Assembly (NCBI GenBank): GCA_000165425.1
Contig: CT868042.1
Span: 186,001-235,572, forward strand
Direction: 5' to 3'
Length of the DNA stretch: 49,572 nucleotides
Source of the DNA: Paramecium tetraurelia
Lineage: Eukaryota
How positions within the stretch are numbered: the stretch's first letter is position 1; every line of letters starts with the position of its first letter. The translations under genes were made by a program, and so were the position numbers. This document shows positions 11,307 to 22,433 of this stretch, piece after piece. The notes under the pieces were generated by a model. That model searched no databases. It saw nothing but the letters and a program-made list of their open reading frames with translations, and was not told the origin of the DNA.

Positions 11307-14300
11307 TCAATCTTCATTATATTATTTTCGGCATTGTCTCAAGAAAACCTATTCCAGATTCGCCTATTTAATAGAAAATGATGCAATCAAATCTTCTTAA
11401 CATAAATTTTTCAGAATCCTAATTGTGGTAGGGACATCATAATCATTCCCCAATTTTATGACTATCAATAATCCTTCTTTTTGATGTTTTGGGAAAGCCA
11501 AGATTATTTAATCTAGAGCATCTTTATTTTTAGCTCGAATGGTTAGTAAGATCCCACTACCATATTATTCAATTAATTAGGCAGTGCTCTATTAAGGAAA
11601 GGGCTATGATCCATTGATGATGAAGCCTATGCTATCACTTAAATACTGAGCCTCATCCATATCATGAGTAGTCAGAATGATAGAACTATTTCGTTTTTGC
11701 ACATGGGCTTAGATCATGTTTTAGAGATTTCTTCTTGAAATAGGATCAAGACCATTGGATGGCTCGTCAAGAATGATTATACCACTATCTCCAATGAGAC
11801 TAATCGCCAAAGCAACCTTCCTCTTCTGACCCCCAGACATATTCACTATTTTACCCTTGATGGATAGGATCCTTAAGATCTATGAAACTTCATTTTTCAC
11901 ATTCCTAATACTCCCTTTAATCTTGGCATATAAATGCAGGATTTCCTCTGCTGTCAGATCTTCCCATAGACCTTCTGATTGTTGACAAGATGAAATAATT
12001 GTATTTTCGTTGTACATAATGCTACCCCAATTAGACTTGAGACAGTCAGTGATTAATTGAATGAGTGTGGTTTTGCCAGCTCCATTAGGACCGAGCAGTG
12101 TCAATATCTTTTAGGGAAACAATTACAGATCGATTTACTTCAATACTTGTTTATTTTGATTATATCCAAATTGAATGTTTTGAATCAACAACTTATTGTT
12201 CCTGTCCTATAAATCCTATCTATTTTCAAATAAAACAAAGTGTTTTTCTAAGGTTTAATAGATGAACATGTAAAAGATGAATTAGGCTATAAAATATACG
12301 GAATAATCTTGGCTAATATCCCTCAATGCCAAGTTCAAGGCATAGAGAGGGAACATGTAAGTAAATACTTCCCTAAGTTGATTTTGAAGTTGAAGATCTA
12401 TCATTGAAGGTAGGAGATAGCCAAATAAAAAGTTAATAACAGGGAATATCTTGATAGCACTTTGATTAGAACTGAACATGAAGGATGCTGCGTATGAGAA
12501 TGAAATCACTGATAATCCGAATAGGCCTAGGATAATCAACAACTATTCTGAACTAAGGAGCATCTCAACTTGGAGTGATAGAGCGTAGATGAATGTAATT
12601 ACAATCAATATAATAAGGTAATCTCCAAGGAATGTGCCAAAAATGTATGTAAATTGGGACATCCTCATTTGTTTTAATTGTTGTCTAATTTTGAGTTCTC
12701 TTTCAAGGATGGGTGTATTTATGAATATCGATGAATTAAGGCTGAATGATTGTGATATAAAAATAGAGACAAATACTTAAATCTAGGTTTCGCCTTACAA
12801 TAAATGATATCCAAAAAGATAAGCAAGTAACAAGATAAGCATGGGCAAGATCAACATCAATTACAACGTGAAGTTCCTTTTGAGAACATAATACTTCTTT
12901 TAGAGCAAGGCAGAAATTTGAAGTAATTACTTGGTTTTGATATCATGGGTAGATTTTATTGGGAATGAGTACTCCTTGATTATTTTATCATCCTCCAAGT
13001 GGTCTTTGTTTAATTTTAGATAGGCTGCTTCTAAGGTGTTCTAAACTAGCTAGATTTTAATATTTTAGGTTTTGCTCAATTCATACACTTTCTCTACAAT
13101 TGAAAACAGTTGATTTTAATTGAGTATGTATTTAATGTTGTCATATTCAAGTTAGGATCCACTTGAACATTCCAATTCGTAAAACAATTGTTTAATTTGT
13201 GATTGCTATTCTGAGGATTGAATGTTCCCAAAAGTCAAAGTGAATCCTACTTCCAATTCCTTTTTGATGTTTTCAGGAGATCCATAAATTTTGATTTAAC
13301 CTTGTTTCATGATGGCAATACGATCAGCCAATTCCTCAGCTTCATCTAAGAAATGAGTAGTCAAAATAAGAGTCTTATTGATTTGTTTGATATCCTTCAA
13401 TATCTACCAGATTTGTCTTCTGGACTCAGGATCAATGCTAGCAGTGGGTTCATCAAGAAATATAATTTAAGAGCCCCCCACCAAAGCCAAGGCAATTTGT
13501 AACTTGCGTTTATTCCCACCACTCAATTCATGTGTCTTGTAATTGGAGTACTGTTATAATTGCATCAGATTCAACCACCTCTCAATTTCAGAAGAGGAAT
13601 CTGTGCCTCTCATCATACATTAATATTGCAATGATTCATAGACAGTCAGTTGATCATACAGTAAGTTCTCTTAAGGACAGAAACCAATTAGTTTTTGAAT
13701 TTCATCTCTTTTCTTTTCAAAGGTCTTACCAAAATATAATATCTTGCCGCTAGTTTTCTCAAGCAATCCTGTCAGTATGTTAAGAGTAGTAGTTTTGCCA
13801 GCTCCATTCTATCCCAAAATACAAAGGATTTATTGAGAGTAGATCTTGAGATTCAAATTGTCAACTGCCACCACATCTCCATATTACTTAAACAATTTCA
13901 CAATTTCAACCGATGTAAAGGCTAATCCCTCCTCATCATATTATCTTCTCATCTTTATATATTCTACATAGTACCTCCATTTGATCCTCCAATTAGACAT
14001 AATCTGTTTTACTCCTTCTTGTCCAAAAGCATCTCCCTGCCTTCATGCATTATTCTTCCAAAAAATTAAACAAAAAATAATAGGCTACTAGATGTACTGA
14101 TAAACTCAGAATACAATAACTAGTGACACTCTCTACATTGCTGCCATTAAGCTTATTCATCAGGTAAAATGAAATGATTGATTATGGACAAATGTACACT
14201 AAGTATTCCATTTAATATAAAGGTGCAAAGTAGAATGTAGATAGGATTGTCTAAAAGAAGGATCCGAATTCCCCAGCCAATTGGGAGTTGCTGAAGAAAG

Positions 14301-14777
14301 TAGACAACAACAAGGTCTGTCCAACTTATGCCAAAATAAATAACATAAAGCAAAACACTATTTCAAGTGATTGTTGGAAATTCATTTTATACAGCAAAGT
14401 TAAGGGTATCATCAAGCCTATGATTACACTTTTAATTATATATGTAATAAACCAAGCTATCCTATAATTTTGCAACTTCATGCCCATAATCTAATTTCAA
14501 GAATTACACATACTTTATATAGATCTCTGTATTTATTCGTCTTCTCATGAACATATTCTACTAACAACTGTCTGCATAAGCCAACAAAGGAAGAGGGAAT
14601 GTAAACAGGCACCATGATAGTCAGAAACGATTTCCCTGTTCCTTAATCACCTTCCTGCACCATCAACAACACGAACACTGTTATTGAGGGGATGAAGAGC
14701 TCTTTGCCAAATTCTTTCATGTTGGTCATCTTCAGGTTTTTCCACAATATGGCCCATATTTAATTGTTAAAATGCAT
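11307..14777 (-). CDS. ABCA-subfamily full ABC transporter (TMD-NBD-TMD-NBD), about 1140 aa
   Basis: N-terminus AILWKN. NBD1: [27 protein letters not shown]2: [37 protein letters not shown]. The LEAAYL and LEQVFL regulatory-domain motifs are typical of ABCA. Confidence 0.93.
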
Positions 14778-14805
14778 TATTGATGATAATAGTTATATAT
14801 ATTAA

Positions 14806-17266
14806 TCATTTGATGTTTACTATGGAACTAATAGAAATTAAATTATTACACATACCTGATGATATGATTGTTCATGGTCAAATCGAATGTCTCAGAATTC
14901 ACATTTCTAGTCTTCCCAAGTAGATAGACTCCTTTCTACAAATTGTTTATGCTCTCAATCACCTTTCCTTTCCCTAAAAACACAATAAACAAAGTGAAAA
15001 TACTTTCTACATTATCTATAATTTCAATTATTGGTTCCAAATGAGTAGGCGGTATCCCTAACACAGTCACATCTACACAAAATGATTTTTCACTCGAATC
15101 TACTTGCACTTACTTCCATTCCTCCTCTGTATATTGATGATCCAAATAATCTCTCCTTAATTTCTCGTAGTAATTGCAATACAGTTCAGGAATATACACA
15201 TCATAGAAGTCCCTTTCCTCTCCTTCCTTGGCCAATATGATAGGATCATTCTAAATCACAGGCTGTTTCCCCAAGAGTGTCTTAAATATCTTAGAATCGT
15301 TCTCTTTGATATTTTCAATAATTGCCTTGGGATCCTTTGCTGTAATTGCCGTCCAATAGCAATCATCAAAGCGAAATTGAGCAAACTGGTTAAGCTTCTT
15401 AATTTCCCCTTGTTTACAAGCGTGTTCAAATTGGGACTAGAAGAGTAAAGTGACTATGGTTTTCTTGCTAAACTAATTGAGACCATTCACTTTCTCTTTC
15501 AATTATTCGATAAAACAATGGATCACATTAGAAAATATAAAGACGATATCCTTCCCATTCTAATTCTCTTGGGGCTAAGCATCAATCTTTTACCATCCAA
15601 CCTATTTTGCACTTAAATCACAATTGTAGATCTTCAAGTTGCAATTATAGTCATCACACAACTCATCCAACATCTCTTGATCTCCCTATTCCAATCGCTT
15701 AACATTTTTGATTCCCAATATAATCTAACAATTCATATAATGATCCAAGAAATCAATAATCTACGCTATATCATTCTTATCGTTACTATTTAAGAGTTCG
15801 ATAATGAACTTCAATTGATTTTATTCACTATAATCTGGTTGAATGACATAAGGAAAACAGTAATTAGTTGAACAATATGCATCAAAATCTGACTAGAATT
15901 GTCCTTCATCAAAATTGTTTAGAAAGAGGTACAACTTGGATTTCTCCTTATAATTGAAGAACTCCACAACTATCTTATCCTACAAAGTCTCAATCTTGTG
16001 ATTTTTGATAATCTTCAACTATTTCATATCCTACTGTTCCTCTTCTTCAGAGGACTGAGGGTCTAGCTATTGGAGGAGTTCTTGTTTCTCAATCTGCTAT
16101 TTGATTGGCAAGATCACTTTAGAATCACTATTTTGATTATTCTTGAAAGGCAAGATCTCTTAGGAATCCACCTACTCTATTATACTGATGTCTTGCTGTA
16201 TCAATTGACTGTCGATCTGTTTATCAACTTCACTATGATAATAACTATTAGTAAATCTAGATAATTGGTTATTCTCCTCATTCATCTACTTTTATCTACA
16301 ATAATGCCATAATGCTATCTCTGTAAATACGAAATCATTTTTCTATAGGTTATGCGTAATCCTCTTCAAGATCTCTGTTCCAAAACATTAATCCAATCGA
16401 TTGCCGATTTCTTCTATTTCCTCCATCTTCACTATTTTACAATCGATCCCATTTAATATATTGCTTTGCTCCTTTGATATCTAAAATAGAATCTTGTTCT
16501 TCAGATGATTCTCCAATGTTGACATTGCTTCCTAACATCCTAAATCAGATGATCCTTAAATCACCAACATAACATAACTCTGGTAATCTTTCAATGTAAA
16601 TGACACTTTGAAGTACTCCTCCATTCTCCTTATGTCAAATATCAAAAATATTTGAATTGCTTGCACATCGTTCATCTTCATTGAATAAAACTTTTTATAA
16701 ACATTTCTCACTGCCAAATCCCGAGCCCTGTAACTATAGTATGCTGTATTTTGAGGCGTAATCCCTTAATCGATATTGTTACGAATATTGTCAACCAAGT
16801 AATTTATGCTCTCAATCAACTAAGTTTTTTTGCTAGAAGGCAAGAAAATGATCACATAATTTAAGGGATATTGTCTTGAAAATTGACCCATATACCCGAA
16901 TTTTTCATTCAACTCTTGCTTAATTAGCATGAATTGCTTCTTAGTGAATATGATCAACCCATTATGCTCCTTTCGAATCGACTCATACTTCTGATTGGAT
17001 AACAAATCCATGTATGGCCCATAATTCTCGTCAGGATTATTTGATTGCATCAATAAATCATACATAAACTCACGCTTAGCCTTACTCATTGCATTCTAGA
17101 CTGCACACTAAACCCTATGCTAATCGGTCCCTTCTAAAAATGCCTTGCTCCCTCTGAATTTCACAAATGTATCATATTTTCTCTTTAAATCAATGAAGAA
17201 TCTGAGATGGTACATCCACATAATATGCTCAGCATCTAGATCTAATTCAATTTCGAAGCCCTTCAT
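14806..17266 (-). CDS. Uncharacterised protein of about 800 aa (paralog A), with putative GXXG-less KH-like units
   Basis: Long ciliate-code ORF starting MKGFEIELDLDAEHIMWMYHLRF, with introns at 14974-15003 and 14828-14855. It aligns by eye to the neighbouring gene at 17321-20136. Confidence 0.75.
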
Positions 17267-17320
17267 TTAATATATAAATTATCATTTTATTTTTATATTT
17301 TCCTGATAATATTTATATTA

Positions 17321-20136
17321 TCACTTTTTCTGGAAATAACCTCTACAATAATATAAATAGCAATCAAATACCTAGGAAGGATTTTGTTTTTTTAAATCAA
17401 TTCCTTTAAGCTCAATTTATCCTTCTCATTACGAATCCAGAGGGTGATAAATCTCCCAACGTGCTAATCAATTAGTTTCGGTACAACTATAGTCATAAGC
17501 TATTTTATTTTACATTTAAAATCCGATTCAAATAACAAGTTCTCAATATTATCAGGATCGCTGGGATTTAATTCTCTATCGCCCAACTCAATGGTTGCTT
17601 CATAATACATTGATAAATTCTAATTAGCTTAATATTCTTCTATATTCATTTAAATATCAATTATATCATTAAGTAATTCAGTATTAAACGCCTCCATCAT
17701 ACTGTAACAATACAGCTTTGAAGCTTCACAATGCTGATCATTCCTAATCTCCTTCATCCATTGATTCTTATTGTCCTGCCTCTTCTTTTGCACCTTAGCC
17801 TTAATATATACTGAATTCATCCTCCTAAATTCTACTTTCGCCTTCTCAAGCAGTTCTTCTATATCTTCGATCTACACAAAATAGAAGGCCATCTTGAAGT
17901 AATCCTTAAATTTTCTCAATTAACATGCCTCCAAACTTGGAAATTCTGTTTCTAAATATTTTAATTAATCCTCAGATATGATAATTACCTTCGTATTGTT
18001 TGCGCCTATTGAGATTGAAGAGTTCTCATTTAGAGACTATTTATTCATGTATTCATCAAACCTCCCCTTCAAGAATTGATGATGGCGATAGGAGTAATTG
18101 CTGACCTTTATTGCCACTTGCTAGCCATCATCAATCTACTGCAACTCTCTAAACTATTTTTCATTCAAAAATTCCGATAACTCCGTTTTCGTTAGGAAAT
18201 ATTCTACTTTGCAGTTCTGTTTCAAAATATCAATTAAATCCTGTGCCTGAGTTGAGTATTAGGTTACATAATGCATCTACTACAAAAAATAGTTATGGAA
18301 AATTTATTTGATTTGATTGATCTCATCTTATTATTTACATTTAATATTCATTTTTATACAGTCAGCAGAAAACTCTAACGTAATTTCATGTTGCAAATCA
18401 TAATATATATTTTGGAACTCCTCAAAGGAATTCTGTAATTCTTAGAAGTTAAATTTCTTACCATTTTATAGAATACTCTGAGTATAAATTATCTAATATT
18501 ACATTAGTTCTATTTTAATCACTTAGCATCTTATTGTCTTATTTAAATCTTCTACTTGTAACAGTTAAGAAGTATTCTCTTATTCTTAAGATAAGGTATA
18601 TTAGTATATAAAACTATTTTGAAGATTCTAAGATACTGATAAATGATCAAAATTCATAGAGATATCCTCATTTTGATTTATATATTTTTGTTGTTTTTCC
18701 TTCTATTACTTCTTGTTGTACTTTATATTTTTGGGCATTTGAGGAATATCCTGTATATTCTGATGTTTCCTATAAAATTTTAATTGTTAATCCTATTAAT
18801 TATTTGAATCTTCATTCTTTACAGTTTCCTCCCTATAATTATAATTGCTACTTTGTTAGTATGAGCTTTGTTAATATGAGCTTTGTTATTATGAGTTTTT
18901 TTTTTATGAGAGTTATTACTACTCAAACTAGGTTTAATCATAAAACTGAAACGGATTCTTCTAGCACTTTTATTGTTTCATCGATGGAAATCCTTTTTTT
19001 TGATTATTTTTATTTGGAATTGGCTTATTTGAACTCTCATTGTAATAGAATTATGAATGAAACCTAATGTCCTTATCTGCTCTAAGATTGTTCTTTGGTT
19101 TTCTGAGCGTTTAATTAATTATATCTGTTATTTCACCTTCCAGATACTGATCGGCGCAAACAAATATTTAATCGGAGCCTAAATCAATCCAATAAATATA
19201 TACTGTATCTCTGAATCAACACTCTATTCAAATTTATACTAAATTATTTATCCAATCTCTTCGATTCAATAAACACCTCCTCAGATGAATATATCTAAAC
19301 TCTTGATGAAGTTGAAACTTAATCATCTATGGTTTTTTCCAAATACAGGAGATCATTAGAACTCAACTTCATCTCCAAATTAGCTATAGGCCAGAACCTC
19401 TTGTTTGCCAGATGATTCTCCAGGATCCTGAATCCATCGTCAATAGAAGGCAAATTATTTGCATTGATAACCAAGAAAAATTGATTTGATGTTTGAGCAA
19501 GCTCTATAATTAGTTACAACTTATTCATGATTTCTTAGACATCCAAATTGAGATAGATGGATATTGCTTCCAAGGCTGTAATGTTATATTGTTAATGGAA
19601 TTTGAATTTGTCTTTCAAACTCTGCTAGTTATATAAATAACCAGTCTTTTAGAAGATCCATTCTTAAATTTAGAGCATATTTGTTCTTGGGAACCAAGTT
19701 ATAAAAAAATGCCTTGGTAGATCAGGACCACTAGGTTGATATCCTAATTTATTCATGTAAGAAATCTATTTATTGAGGGAGGATTTTGAATAAATCCAGA
19801 ACCCTGGGTTACTTTTGCATAACTCTCGATATTGGTCCTATTAAAATAATTAATGGAAAGCCTGGATCTCATTGTCATTCCGAAATTCCTCAACCTGCAT
19901 TATGAAATCTTCATCAACCAGTTGATAAATTCTTTAAGCGGCATTCTCACACTAAATTGCATCACCTTAGTAACATAGAAACAAATACCTTCCAAAATAA
20001 TCAAGTTTTAAGAGTAGAAGAACCTGATTCTATTCTCTTGGGCGATCCTCTCCAAAAACCCTAAATGATGAATCCATATTGTTTCCAATGATTCTAATTC
20101 AATCACCTTCTCTACATTTGACTTTTTAAAATTCAT
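17321..20136 (-). CDS. Uncharacterised protein of about 900 aa (paralog B), with putative KH-like units and a Q/S/N-rich linker
   Basis: Starts MNFKKSNVEKVIELESLETIWIHHLGF. The frame is continuous with 4 tiny introns (near 19980, near 19190, 17487-17513, 17343-17371); TGA at 17321-17323. Confidence 0.75.
18851..18895. repeat. Three copies of a 15-bp tandem repeat inside a CDS (encodes QQSSY-like units on the - strand)
   Basis: ctttgttagtatgag / ctttgttaatatgag / ctttgttattatgag. Confidence 0.85.
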
Positions 20137-20296
20137 TAAAATAAATATAATGAAAACACTTAAACAAATCGGTAAGCTCGTTTGATTGATTACTAAAGAG
20201 TGTTAAGATGCACTCCTCGCAATTATTTATACATACAAGAATGATCATCTATCAACATTATTTATTATACAGAATGTCATATATTATTATTATATA

Positions 20297-21379
20297 ATGA
20301 AAGTAGTATAATTTAACAATGGATTGTATTATGGATAACTTGATTACTTTTACAAAAAGATTGGCTTGGGGGTTTATGTTTATGATGACTCTACCCTTTA
20401 TTACGGATAATGGAAAAACGATCTTTATAATGGCGAAGGATTGATTGTGTTTCCTTATGGTGCAATTTTGAAGGCCACCTTTAAGAACCATTCCATAGAA
20501 GGAATAGGAATCCTGATAACCAACAATGAAGTCCTGATTGGAGAATATCAGAATTCGGTTTTAATGAATAAAGCATTGCTCTTTAATGGAAAATAATGGA
20601 AATTGAGATCATTTTTGAAAAATGGCCAATTCGAAGATGCGGATTGTCAACCTAGCAAAGAATAAAAACTATTCTCGGAATTCATTAAGCAATACCCCTC
20701 ACTCTATAAAAGCAAACTCTTGTTATCGTTGGTTGGGTTTACGATACATGAAAATCAAATGTACATTGGGGAGTTTAAGAACAACAAACTGGATGGTTTG
20801 GGTAGAATGTTAGACTTCGACAAAAGAGTATTGGAGGATGGTTATTACAAGAACGGATTGCTGCAGAAGGGATTTAGATATTACGTTGAAAACAACTCAT
20901 TCGAATAGGTTTAACTCGTATTTGAACAGGGATCATTCGATTATAAGATAATGATGAAAGGAGACGACTTTCCCATCGAATTGATTAAAAAACAAAGAGC
21001 ACTTATGCATCTCACATCTAAGTAATTCATTAGCAAATCCCAAGAAATTCATTACTTTCACAATAGATATCAAAAATGCAACCATCAACTCAAACCATTG
21101 CTAAAAATTACTTTAAATCAATTTATTATAGAAGAGGATGTGTCAAATGAGGGGGAGACAAATAAACCAATTGAACATGTCAGAAAAGCCTCCTTCCACA
21201 ATGAAAAGAATAAATAGTTGGATGAGCAGACAACCACCAGAACCACATCCTTCCATGAAAAGAGCAGATAATTTGAATTAGACATATGTAAAATTGAATT
21301 TGAGAATGCCTTGAGACCTTAGCATTCAAATGTAAGATAGCCATAAAGGAAGAGGATATTTGATAAATATAATTTTTGA
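20297..21379 (+). CDS. MORN-repeat protein (360 aa, apparently intronless)
   Basis: Units LYYGQLD..KIGLG, YYGQWKNDLYNGEG, YIGEFKNNKLDGLG. The 1083-nt span is in frame to a TGA. Confidence 0.85.
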
Positions 21380-22433
21380 CTCATAATACTAATTAATATA
21401 TACCATAATATGGAAAAGATGTTTAAAACATATGCATTTATTCAAATATTGATTATCCAAGTCAAGTCAATCTATTTGTTTACTTTACTTAAGGATTATT
21501 TCCAATTATTATAATAATTAGGATACAATATCAGATATATGATAATTTATTTGATGAGAGAGTTTAGTTATTCTTCAAGAATCTGATATATTAATTTGAG
21601 TGGTCTTAAAGGAGGAAGTTCAATTACAGCTAAGTTCGATTTTAGAGATGCTTAAATCTTTAATGGATTGAGGATTTATTTAATGATTTTGATACGGATA
21701 CAAATTATATAAAAATTTCAAAATCTCACATAGTTTGTAAATAAATGCTTTACTATTTTTGTAAACACTAAGTTTTATATATCTGTGTCTTTATAATTAT
21801 CAGCATTTCTAGATGAAAATTGCGACAACAGCCTAGTGATTTCTTGACTCAAATGCTGTAGTCTCACTCTCATTGTGAATCTTTATCGAAGCTTCTTAAA
21901 CCTTAAATACATAAGAATGGCGATTACTGTAATTATATAATTTAATGCATACCAATCACAATTAATGGAAACATCTTCTATAAATTTTGAGAAATCCATT
22001 TTAAATATTGTTACACAAGGAGTATGTAAGATCGTCTCATCTAATTTTTTTTTTCCAATCTATGTTGATAGTTCTTTAATCTCAACTAATAATCACATTG
22101 ATTCTGGAATTCTTGTTAGATGATTGTTTCTAACAGAACGTTCACCTTGAACTAATTTACGTAAATTTAAATCTATGCTCTGCAAACAGGACAAGTATTG
22201 AAATTTTGATAAAAGTTTTTGTTGCTTAAACAGGGTTTACAGAAGGAATGACCACATGTAAGAGTCAAGGGATGTAATAAAGTTTATAAGCATATAGGGC
22301 AATCAAATAGTTGTTACATATTTATTTATAAATAGATGCTTTCTTGAGAGTAAATTAAAATCAAAAAGAGTGATTAGAGATGAGGAGTATAATTGTATTA
22401 TGGGAATATCTAGAAATAAGGATATATAATAAA

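Follow-up and report, generated by a model that had tools for sequence, protein, structure and literature searches.

A tandem pair of homologous genes

The window analyzed here is a stretch of 49,572 nucleotides (nt) of the Paramecium tetraurelia genome (G000:C59:186001-235572, in an assembly of 72.1 Mb in 697 contigs), translated throughout with NCBI table 6. It carries two adjacent minus-strand genes, A and B, which are homologous, share their 3' gene structure and are both expressed (Table 1). Their products are predicted to be strings of KH-like units that end in a putative, miniaturized ADP-ribosyltransferase (ART) domain.

A preliminary description of the DNA had proposed an anciently duplicated tandem pair whose likeness appears at the protein level and not in the DNA. 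Such likeness is clear: BLASTP aligns A amino acids (aa) 8-264 with B aa 12-244 at 54 of 264 identical positions (20%; expectation value, E, 1e-6), whereas blastn finds no match longer than 24 nt. The N-terminal halves score 140, compared with a mean of 43.7 and a maximum of 75 in 500 local shuffles (z 13.6; 0/500 reach the score). The C-terminal halves cannot be aligned directly (z 0.3; 160/500 shuffles reach the score), and on sequence scores their homology is transitive through the paralogs C and D described below (z 20 for A-C, 21 for B-D, 7 for B-C and 5 for A-D). All five quoted peptide pairs are present in the two proteins, as is the conserved 3' structure, with last introns in phases 1 then 2, penultimate exons of 118 and 115 nt and terminal coding exons of 22 nt. 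Both positions recur across the family: the last intron is also found in B', C, D and D', and the penultimate in B', D and D' without C. The last coding exon measures 22 nt in A, B and B', 34 nt in C and 58 nt in D. The tandem arrangement and the homology of the N-halves therefore stand, whereas the idea of simple duplicates is not supported, since by its C-half A belongs with the gene on contig C17 and B with the genes on C39 and C4.

An undescribed Paramecium family

Genome searches place A and B in a P. tetraurelia family of four lineages, with six intact genes and one remnant. The other intact members are C on C17 (723 aa, without the central linker), D on C39 (941 aa), D' on C4, at 82% to D over the N-half, and B' on C458 (53%), the ohnolog of B. 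In gene C, a TGA interrupts a short N-terminal extension (L004:7373-7415, minus strand of C17) and the start lies 13 codons later; the extension is open in the relatives P0016 and P0030. Directly after intact B' lies the remnant, a decayed copy of A with an internal deletion and a still recognizable start and 3' end (A'; L011:226-780 on C458), and the segment holding both is collinear with the window. Near B' there is also a gene with three MIF4G stretches (L010:2075-4381, minus strand of C458), which we take to be UPF2-like and whose DNA finds no match in the collinear part of the window.

Orthologs of A and B occur as neighbouring accessions on one contig in P. octaurelia, P. primaurelia, P. 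pentaurelia and P. sonneborni; the synteny check proposed at the outset thus finds the tandem pair retained in five Paramecium species. At a second P. sonneborni locus A is intact and B is in pieces. A profile search of 1.84 billion representatives returned 16 matches, two of them already named as Paramecium. Looking up ten of the 16 gave three from Paramecium and seven without an organism, and no named member from outside Paramecium was found among the 16. Because several unnamed fragments are just 17-33% identical to A, the family probably predates the aurelia group. Metagenome scans gave 501 and 67 pattern matches, none of which was confirmed. The family had been called uncharacterized, and this agrees with the absence of any Pfam family at cut-off in 14/14 rows and with names of the kind 'unnamed' or 'uncharacterized'; the proteins matching A and B at 100% are called 'unnamed protein product [Paramecium tetraurelia]'. 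No paper on it was found in the open-access literature (gene identifiers not used as queries; supplements outside the scope), and as far as searched the family is undescribed.

Predicted KH-like units lacking the GxxG loop

An AlphaFold model built on a 37-row alignment reached a predicted local distance difference test score (pLDDT) of 73 and a predicted template modelling score of 0.32, and it informs the units, not the packing of domains. An earlier model from a five-row alignment (A1) was unusable (pLDDT 33). The modelled units follow the order beta-alpha-alpha-beta-beta-alpha, units 1 and 3 superpose on solved type I KH domains, and the titles of 18 of the 20 top structural matches contain KH or vigilin. 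No GxxG lies between the two KH helices in any of 14 proteins and four gene models, and in the model just two residues join these helices in units 1 and 3. The one GxxG exception, at G124 in three A/C sequences, falls in an insert loop. Type I KH-like folds without GxxG had been proposed from the letters alone, and the modelled topology, the structural matches and the missing motif support them; units 1 and 3 are predicted to be KH folds without the GxxG loop. Unit 2 holds the most conserved residues of the family (Y94, G103, G124-Y125 and P143). According to the family alignment, the linker that follows the N-half units is longer and glutamine/asparagine-rich (Q/N-rich) in B and D and absent in C. 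A is acidic (net charge -22, isoelectric point 5.3) and B mildly so.

Searches by sequence and whole fold gave fainter signals. Pfam KH matched 0/14 rows at E <= 1, Foldseek against the PDB gave no match at E <= 0.001, and profiles A2 and A3, run against PDB sequences, yielded zero and two chance matches, which were discarded. An internal-repeat test with hhalign over 45 unit pairs singled out only units 1/3 (E 0.0017, probability 16%). In the ESM Atlas, KH arrays fill nine of ten structure rows, a weak lead at TM scores of 0.17-0.24 that are not diagnostic, and two Deltex-type ligase clusters are among these rows. ESM Atlas features KH_1/RBM43/Mug60 at 0.77-0.79 are a similarly weak lead; for the A protein P0003, ESM features gave no usable match.

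A candidate pseudo-ART at the C-terminus

In a fold search with the predicted model, 111 of the 127 tail residues superpose on the catalytic domain of PARP10, the tail being about 60 residues shorter than the matched chain (127 vs 191). By eye, its order of strands and helices fits the ART core and a long helix leads in. Conservation of the tail, at 56-74% between orthologs or ohnologs, matches that of the KH units. From the model we infer that it may be a pseudo-ART derived from a PARP10/14-like ancestor. Because the C-terminus matches the PARP catalytic fold, the comparison with PARP14, DTX3L and N4BP1 made in the preliminary description may be closer than was thought there. A by-eye reading of the last 75 residues as an RRM was dropped as less probable, because the model has no second RRM helix and the PARP10 match spans a larger domain.

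All 18 aligned tails lack both the His-Gly and the Gly-x-Tyr-Phe motif in the corresponding strands, and among them no polar residue is invariant across lineages and no conserved Cys/His set is seen. Neither an H-Y-E nor an H-Y-aliphatic triad is present: in the by-eye register Val/Ile stands for His and Asp/Glu for Gly, Tyr is ambiguous, and only paralog C has a Glu at the catalytic position. An unguided block search of paralog C against the local macrodomain-PARPs recovered five of seven by-eye blocks, which is not significant (14/200 shuffles). Foldseek against viral models returned one match that is not interpretable (E 3e-4, prob 0.21); a viral PARP at rank 28 among the viral-model matches (E 0.15) was not counted as evidence.

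History of the four lineages

The C-half tree groups A+C against B+D (support 100/100), and A+B is rejected in the approximately unbiased (AU) test (p 0.0036). The N-half tree groups A+B against C+D, with A+C rejected (p 0.015). Units 3-4 alone give A+B and C+D (support 97; AU test against A+C, p 0.011), and units 1-2 do not carry this signal (p 0.33). The AU tests used 11 rows; P0039, P0043, P0044 and P0028, which are close to kept rows, the broken P0017/P0018, and short fragments other than P0015/19/22/23/34 were omitted from the trees. The tree tool warned that long branches meet in the A/B/C/D trees. The C-half and unit 3-4 trees conflict and intron 1 is common to B and D, so that on this comparison a simple sister relation of A and B does not hold. 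The likeliest history would be an old two-gene pair that underwent one further duplication; neighbouring genes would have exchanged their units 3-4, or these would have evolved together.

Gene models, transcription and neighbouring genes

The model of A is identical to NCBI protein P0003 over its full length (100% identity and coverage). In 3/3 raw-read runs, stranded reads show minus-strand transcription of A and B at low depth (about 0.3-19 per bin in runs of 1.1-1.3 billion letters), with A at roughly twice the level of B. Run X3, which we guess to be an RNA run as its contigs lack introns except B intron 2, gave two separate pieces, 14778-17265 (A) and 17301-20127 (B), with five of six introns removed. 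A and B are separately transcribed; these two contigs, neither of which bridges the spacer, speak against a fused transcript. Among the indexed runs registered as RNA, none contains the stretch, which counts neither for nor against expression. The NCBI model of B (P0008, 912 aa) is wrong to keep a 27-nt intron, because the X3 contig removes it. Retention of B intron 2 in the only transcript-like contig would introduce an in-frame TGA, predicting an N-half-only protein of about 310 aa. Judged by its position, which is shared with B' and C, it is nevertheless a real intron.

Table 1. Features of the A-B locus (positions in the window; nt, nucleotides; aa, amino acids)
Feature	Position	Strand	Description
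Gene B	17321..20136	-	903 aa, 5 exons (20136-19989, 19965-19204, 19178-17514, 17486-17372, 17342-17321); KH-like array, Q/N-rich linker, C-half, ART-like tail (tail by family alignment)
B stretch directly alignable to A	19382..20103	-	B aa 12-244 vs A aa 8-264 (units 1-3); BLASTP and shuffles
B intron 1	19966..19988	-	23 nt, phase 1; position shared with B' and D; D' also has an intron there
B intron 2	19179..19203	-	25 nt, phase 1; position common to B' and C; retained in one RNA-like contig
B intron 3	17487..17513	-	27 nt, phase 1; overlooked by NCBI model
B intron 4	17343..17371	-	29 nt, phase 2
B C-terminal domain, approximate	17321..17780	-	counterpart of A aa 674-800 by family alignment
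Spacer, B stop to A start	17267..17320		54 nt, intergenic; bridged by no contig
Gene A	14806..17266	-	800 aa, 3 exons (17266-15004, 14973-14856, 14827-14806); gene model, NCBI P0003, transcript contig 14778-17265
A unit 1	17069..17257	-	aa 4-66; predicted type I KH fold, no GxxG
A unit 2	16769..17068	-	aa 67-166; KH-like with helical insert 109-123
A unit 3	16490..16699	-	aa 190-259; predicted type I KH fold, no GxxG
A unit 4	16226..16495	-	aa 258-347; alpha/beta, two-helix insert, long exit helix; KH-like by secondary structure only (model)
A disordered linker	16007..16261	-	aa 336-420; pLDDT < 50
A C-half alpha/beta units	15266..16030	-	aa 413-512, 513-596, 602-667; last ends in a long helix into the tail domain
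A intron 1	14974..15003	-	30 nt, phase 1
A intron 2	14828..14855	-	28 nt, phase 2
A C-terminal domain	14806..15247	-	aa 674-800; candidate miniaturized, catalytically dead PARP-like ART fold

About 75 nt after the stop of A begins an ABC transporter gene (ABC_tran and ABC2_membrane_3; 11310-14729, minus strand), and the same gene also follows the A' remnant on C458. At 14176 and 14476 within it, a few RNA reads carry single-letter differences (X23 4/4; X21 3/3) near loose ends, possibly splice-junction artefacts or strain alleles. On the other side, a MORN-repeat gene (about 20295-21379, plus strand) is divergent from B at some 160 nt from its start codon and is transcribed from the opposite strand; a shared promoter is possible. 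A small C3HC4 RING-finger gene (21873-22433, minus) lies on B's strand about 1.8 kb upstream.

Discussion

We tentatively favor, at a probability somewhat below even, the reading that A and B are non-catalytic KH-array adaptors with a miniaturized pseudo-ART, which scaffold or tune an ADP-ribosylation or RNA-surveillance complex through protein contacts. Each protein would line up type I KH-like units, with four of them in the N-half and three alpha/beta units of less certain nature beyond a disordered linker, and would finish in a reduced PARP-type ART fold stripped of its NAD-binding residues. The KH units, which lack GxxG and are neutral to acidic, may serve mainly for protein-protein contacts with themselves, with paralogs and possibly with the macrodomain-PARPs encoded on C19 and C28. 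Without itself being an enzyme, the family would then organize or adjust a mono-ADP-ribosylation or RNA-surveillance complex, as PARP9/DTX3L do for PARP14.

There are precedents for this proposal. According to the relevant part of PMC11080071, the binding of PARP9, PARP14 and DTX3L and the dimerization of DTX3L run through KH-like domains without GxxG, and the passage on KHNYN in PMC11997328 reports no RNA binding by its diKH module. PMC10450202 describes how the ART of PARP9/10/14 is preceded by a KH unit that bears a long helix. Several considerations weigh against the proposal. Neither PF00644 nor the local PARP profiles match the tail sequence, and four sequence tests of the ART assignment were all negative, the local PARP profile being thin (2-14 rows). 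C and D are not acidic, and PARP14 KH1-2 is described as binding RNA in vitro. No link between the family and the local PARPs is established, and it has no significant sequence similarity to the C19/C28 pair.

This pair is possibly an active partner of the family. Among 30 PF00644 matches in the P. tetraurelia genome, it comprises two plus-strand genes of about 1600 aa each (C19:~99490-104500, L052; C28:~99530-104575, L051), which begin Q/N-rich, continue through a long alpha/beta region and carry a Pfam Macro domain and a PARP domain of the mono-ART type that keeps the His and Tyr motifs and has no Glu. The layout is PARP14-like. By eye only, the middle region resembles alpha/beta repeats, with KH-like and WWE-like parts, and family profiles do not recognize it. 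The pair resembles the family in sharing its genome, a Q/N-rich stretch, a long alpha/beta region and, if the family tail is one, a C-terminal ART, and differs in size, in its Macro domain and in its retained motifs. It agrees with a clade 3 macro+PARP protein mentioned for this species in PMC4245714; PMC2964712 had reported no clade 3 PARP in Paramecium. It is conceivable, although rather doubtful, that Paramecium has a PARP14/PARP9-like module in which an intact macrodomain-PARP is joined by four KH-array pseudo-PARP lineages with a minimal ART that pair via KH units 3-4 and regulate the enzyme.

Several known designs come close to the family. PARP9, PARP10 and PARP14, as described in PMC10450202, PMC11080071 and PMC2964712, combine several GxxG-less type I KH units, a long helix and a C-terminal ART or ART-like domain, and the ART of PARP9 is reported to be inactive, as the family tail may be. 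In contrast, no RRM, macrodomain, WWE or UIM was detected in the family, which has no detectable sequence similarity to these PARPs, an ART-like domain of just ~127 aa and no visible split KH with inserted macrodomains. The Macro domain of PARP9/14/15 is absent from 14 family rows (the same Pfam scan finds it in L051 and L052), the N-terminal RRMs/UIMs of PARP10 have no Pfam match in a protein that begins with a KH unit, and neither RING nor DTC of DTX3L/Deltex is matched in Pfam. Because macrodomain, RRM, RING and catalytic triad were tested for and not found, these proteins are not members of PARP9/10/14 or Deltex. DTX3L is comparable in its GxxG-less KH-like array, which is described as serving homo- and hetero-oligomerization, and in its neighbouring partner gene; it differs in having RING and DTC and in a head-to-head rather than tandem gene arrangement. 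Compared with the diKH of N4BP1/KHNYN, the family has more units and no detected NYN nuclease or ubiquitin-binding domain. TASOR, PARP13/ZAP and LRRC9 are cited as having degenerate ART domains that function without catalysis, but their flanking domains differ, none was a direct fold-search match, and the family tail appears further shrunken.

Alternatively, the proteins could be KH-only arrays of the vigilin/Bicaudal-C/Mug60 type, that is, a diverged RNA-binding or ribosome-associated platform with another small alpha/beta fold as its tail and a chance match to PARP10. We consider this fairly unlikely. Vigilin, KH_BICC1 and Mug60/KHD4 clusters head the ESM structure rows, and many vigilin repeats appear among the structural matches together with 3n89, presumably GLD-3 (its title says just 'KH domains'). 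A genome search with KH_1 gave at least 10 matches at six places and no long array, so that a vigilin-like role may be vacant, and the negative ART sequence tests would be expected. Vigilin, Bicaudal-C and Mug60/KHD4 are likewise long type I KH arrays with some degenerate units, but most members are recognized by Pfam KH_1, whereas the family has no such match, lacks GxxG in every unit and adds a central disordered linker and a distinct tail, most of which superposes on PARP10; the TM scores behind the vigilin-like matches do not discriminate. Even less probable, in our view, is a structural lattice or cortex role, with degenerate KH units that build polymers, as KH-like subunits do in the oocyte cytoplasmic lattice. 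We judge it very unlikely, since those structural matches are level with ordinary KH domains and the read depth seems too low for a bulk structural protein. If the tail were a working transferase of unusual kind whose active site had moved, the ART-like fold and the Glu in paralog C would be accounted for; the missing motifs, the lack of an invariant polar residue and a domain so much shorter than PARP10 make this extremely improbable.

A further possibility, compatible with the adaptor reading, is that A and B are obligate partners in a pseudo-symmetric KH-KH heterodimer whose genes stay together for co-regulation, C and D being a second pair. The tandem kept in five species, the transcription of both genes in every run and the grouping of units 3-4 are consistent with this, and DTX3L and PARP9 are described as neighbours that bind via KH-like domains. 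However, adjacency probably says little where gene order is conserved as a rule, as it is in these species, C and D lie on different contigs, and the tree signal possibly comes from long branches. The retention of B' and decay of A' after genome duplication, and the P. sonneborni locus with an intact A and a broken B, further argue against strict stoichiometry. We regard obligate pairing as unlikely.

In animals, KH-array PARPs are known antiviral proteins induced by interferon, and their GxxG-less KH units may form an RNA track or a protein scaffold. If the PARP14/PARP9-like module exists, the KH-array-plus-ART design, or a convergent version of it, would occur in a ciliate as a candidate cell-autonomous defence or RNA-surveillance system. 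A 2026 review dates this design to about 700 million years ago (PMC13224862); if the tail is an ART, KH-array pseudo-PARPs would have arisen earlier or twice. If it is not, A and B still belong to an undescribed, lineage-restricted KH-like family of moderate interest. With an ART tail, the family would define a minimal ART scaffold and offer a single-celled test system, tractable by RNA interference, for such arrays and pseudo-ARTs.

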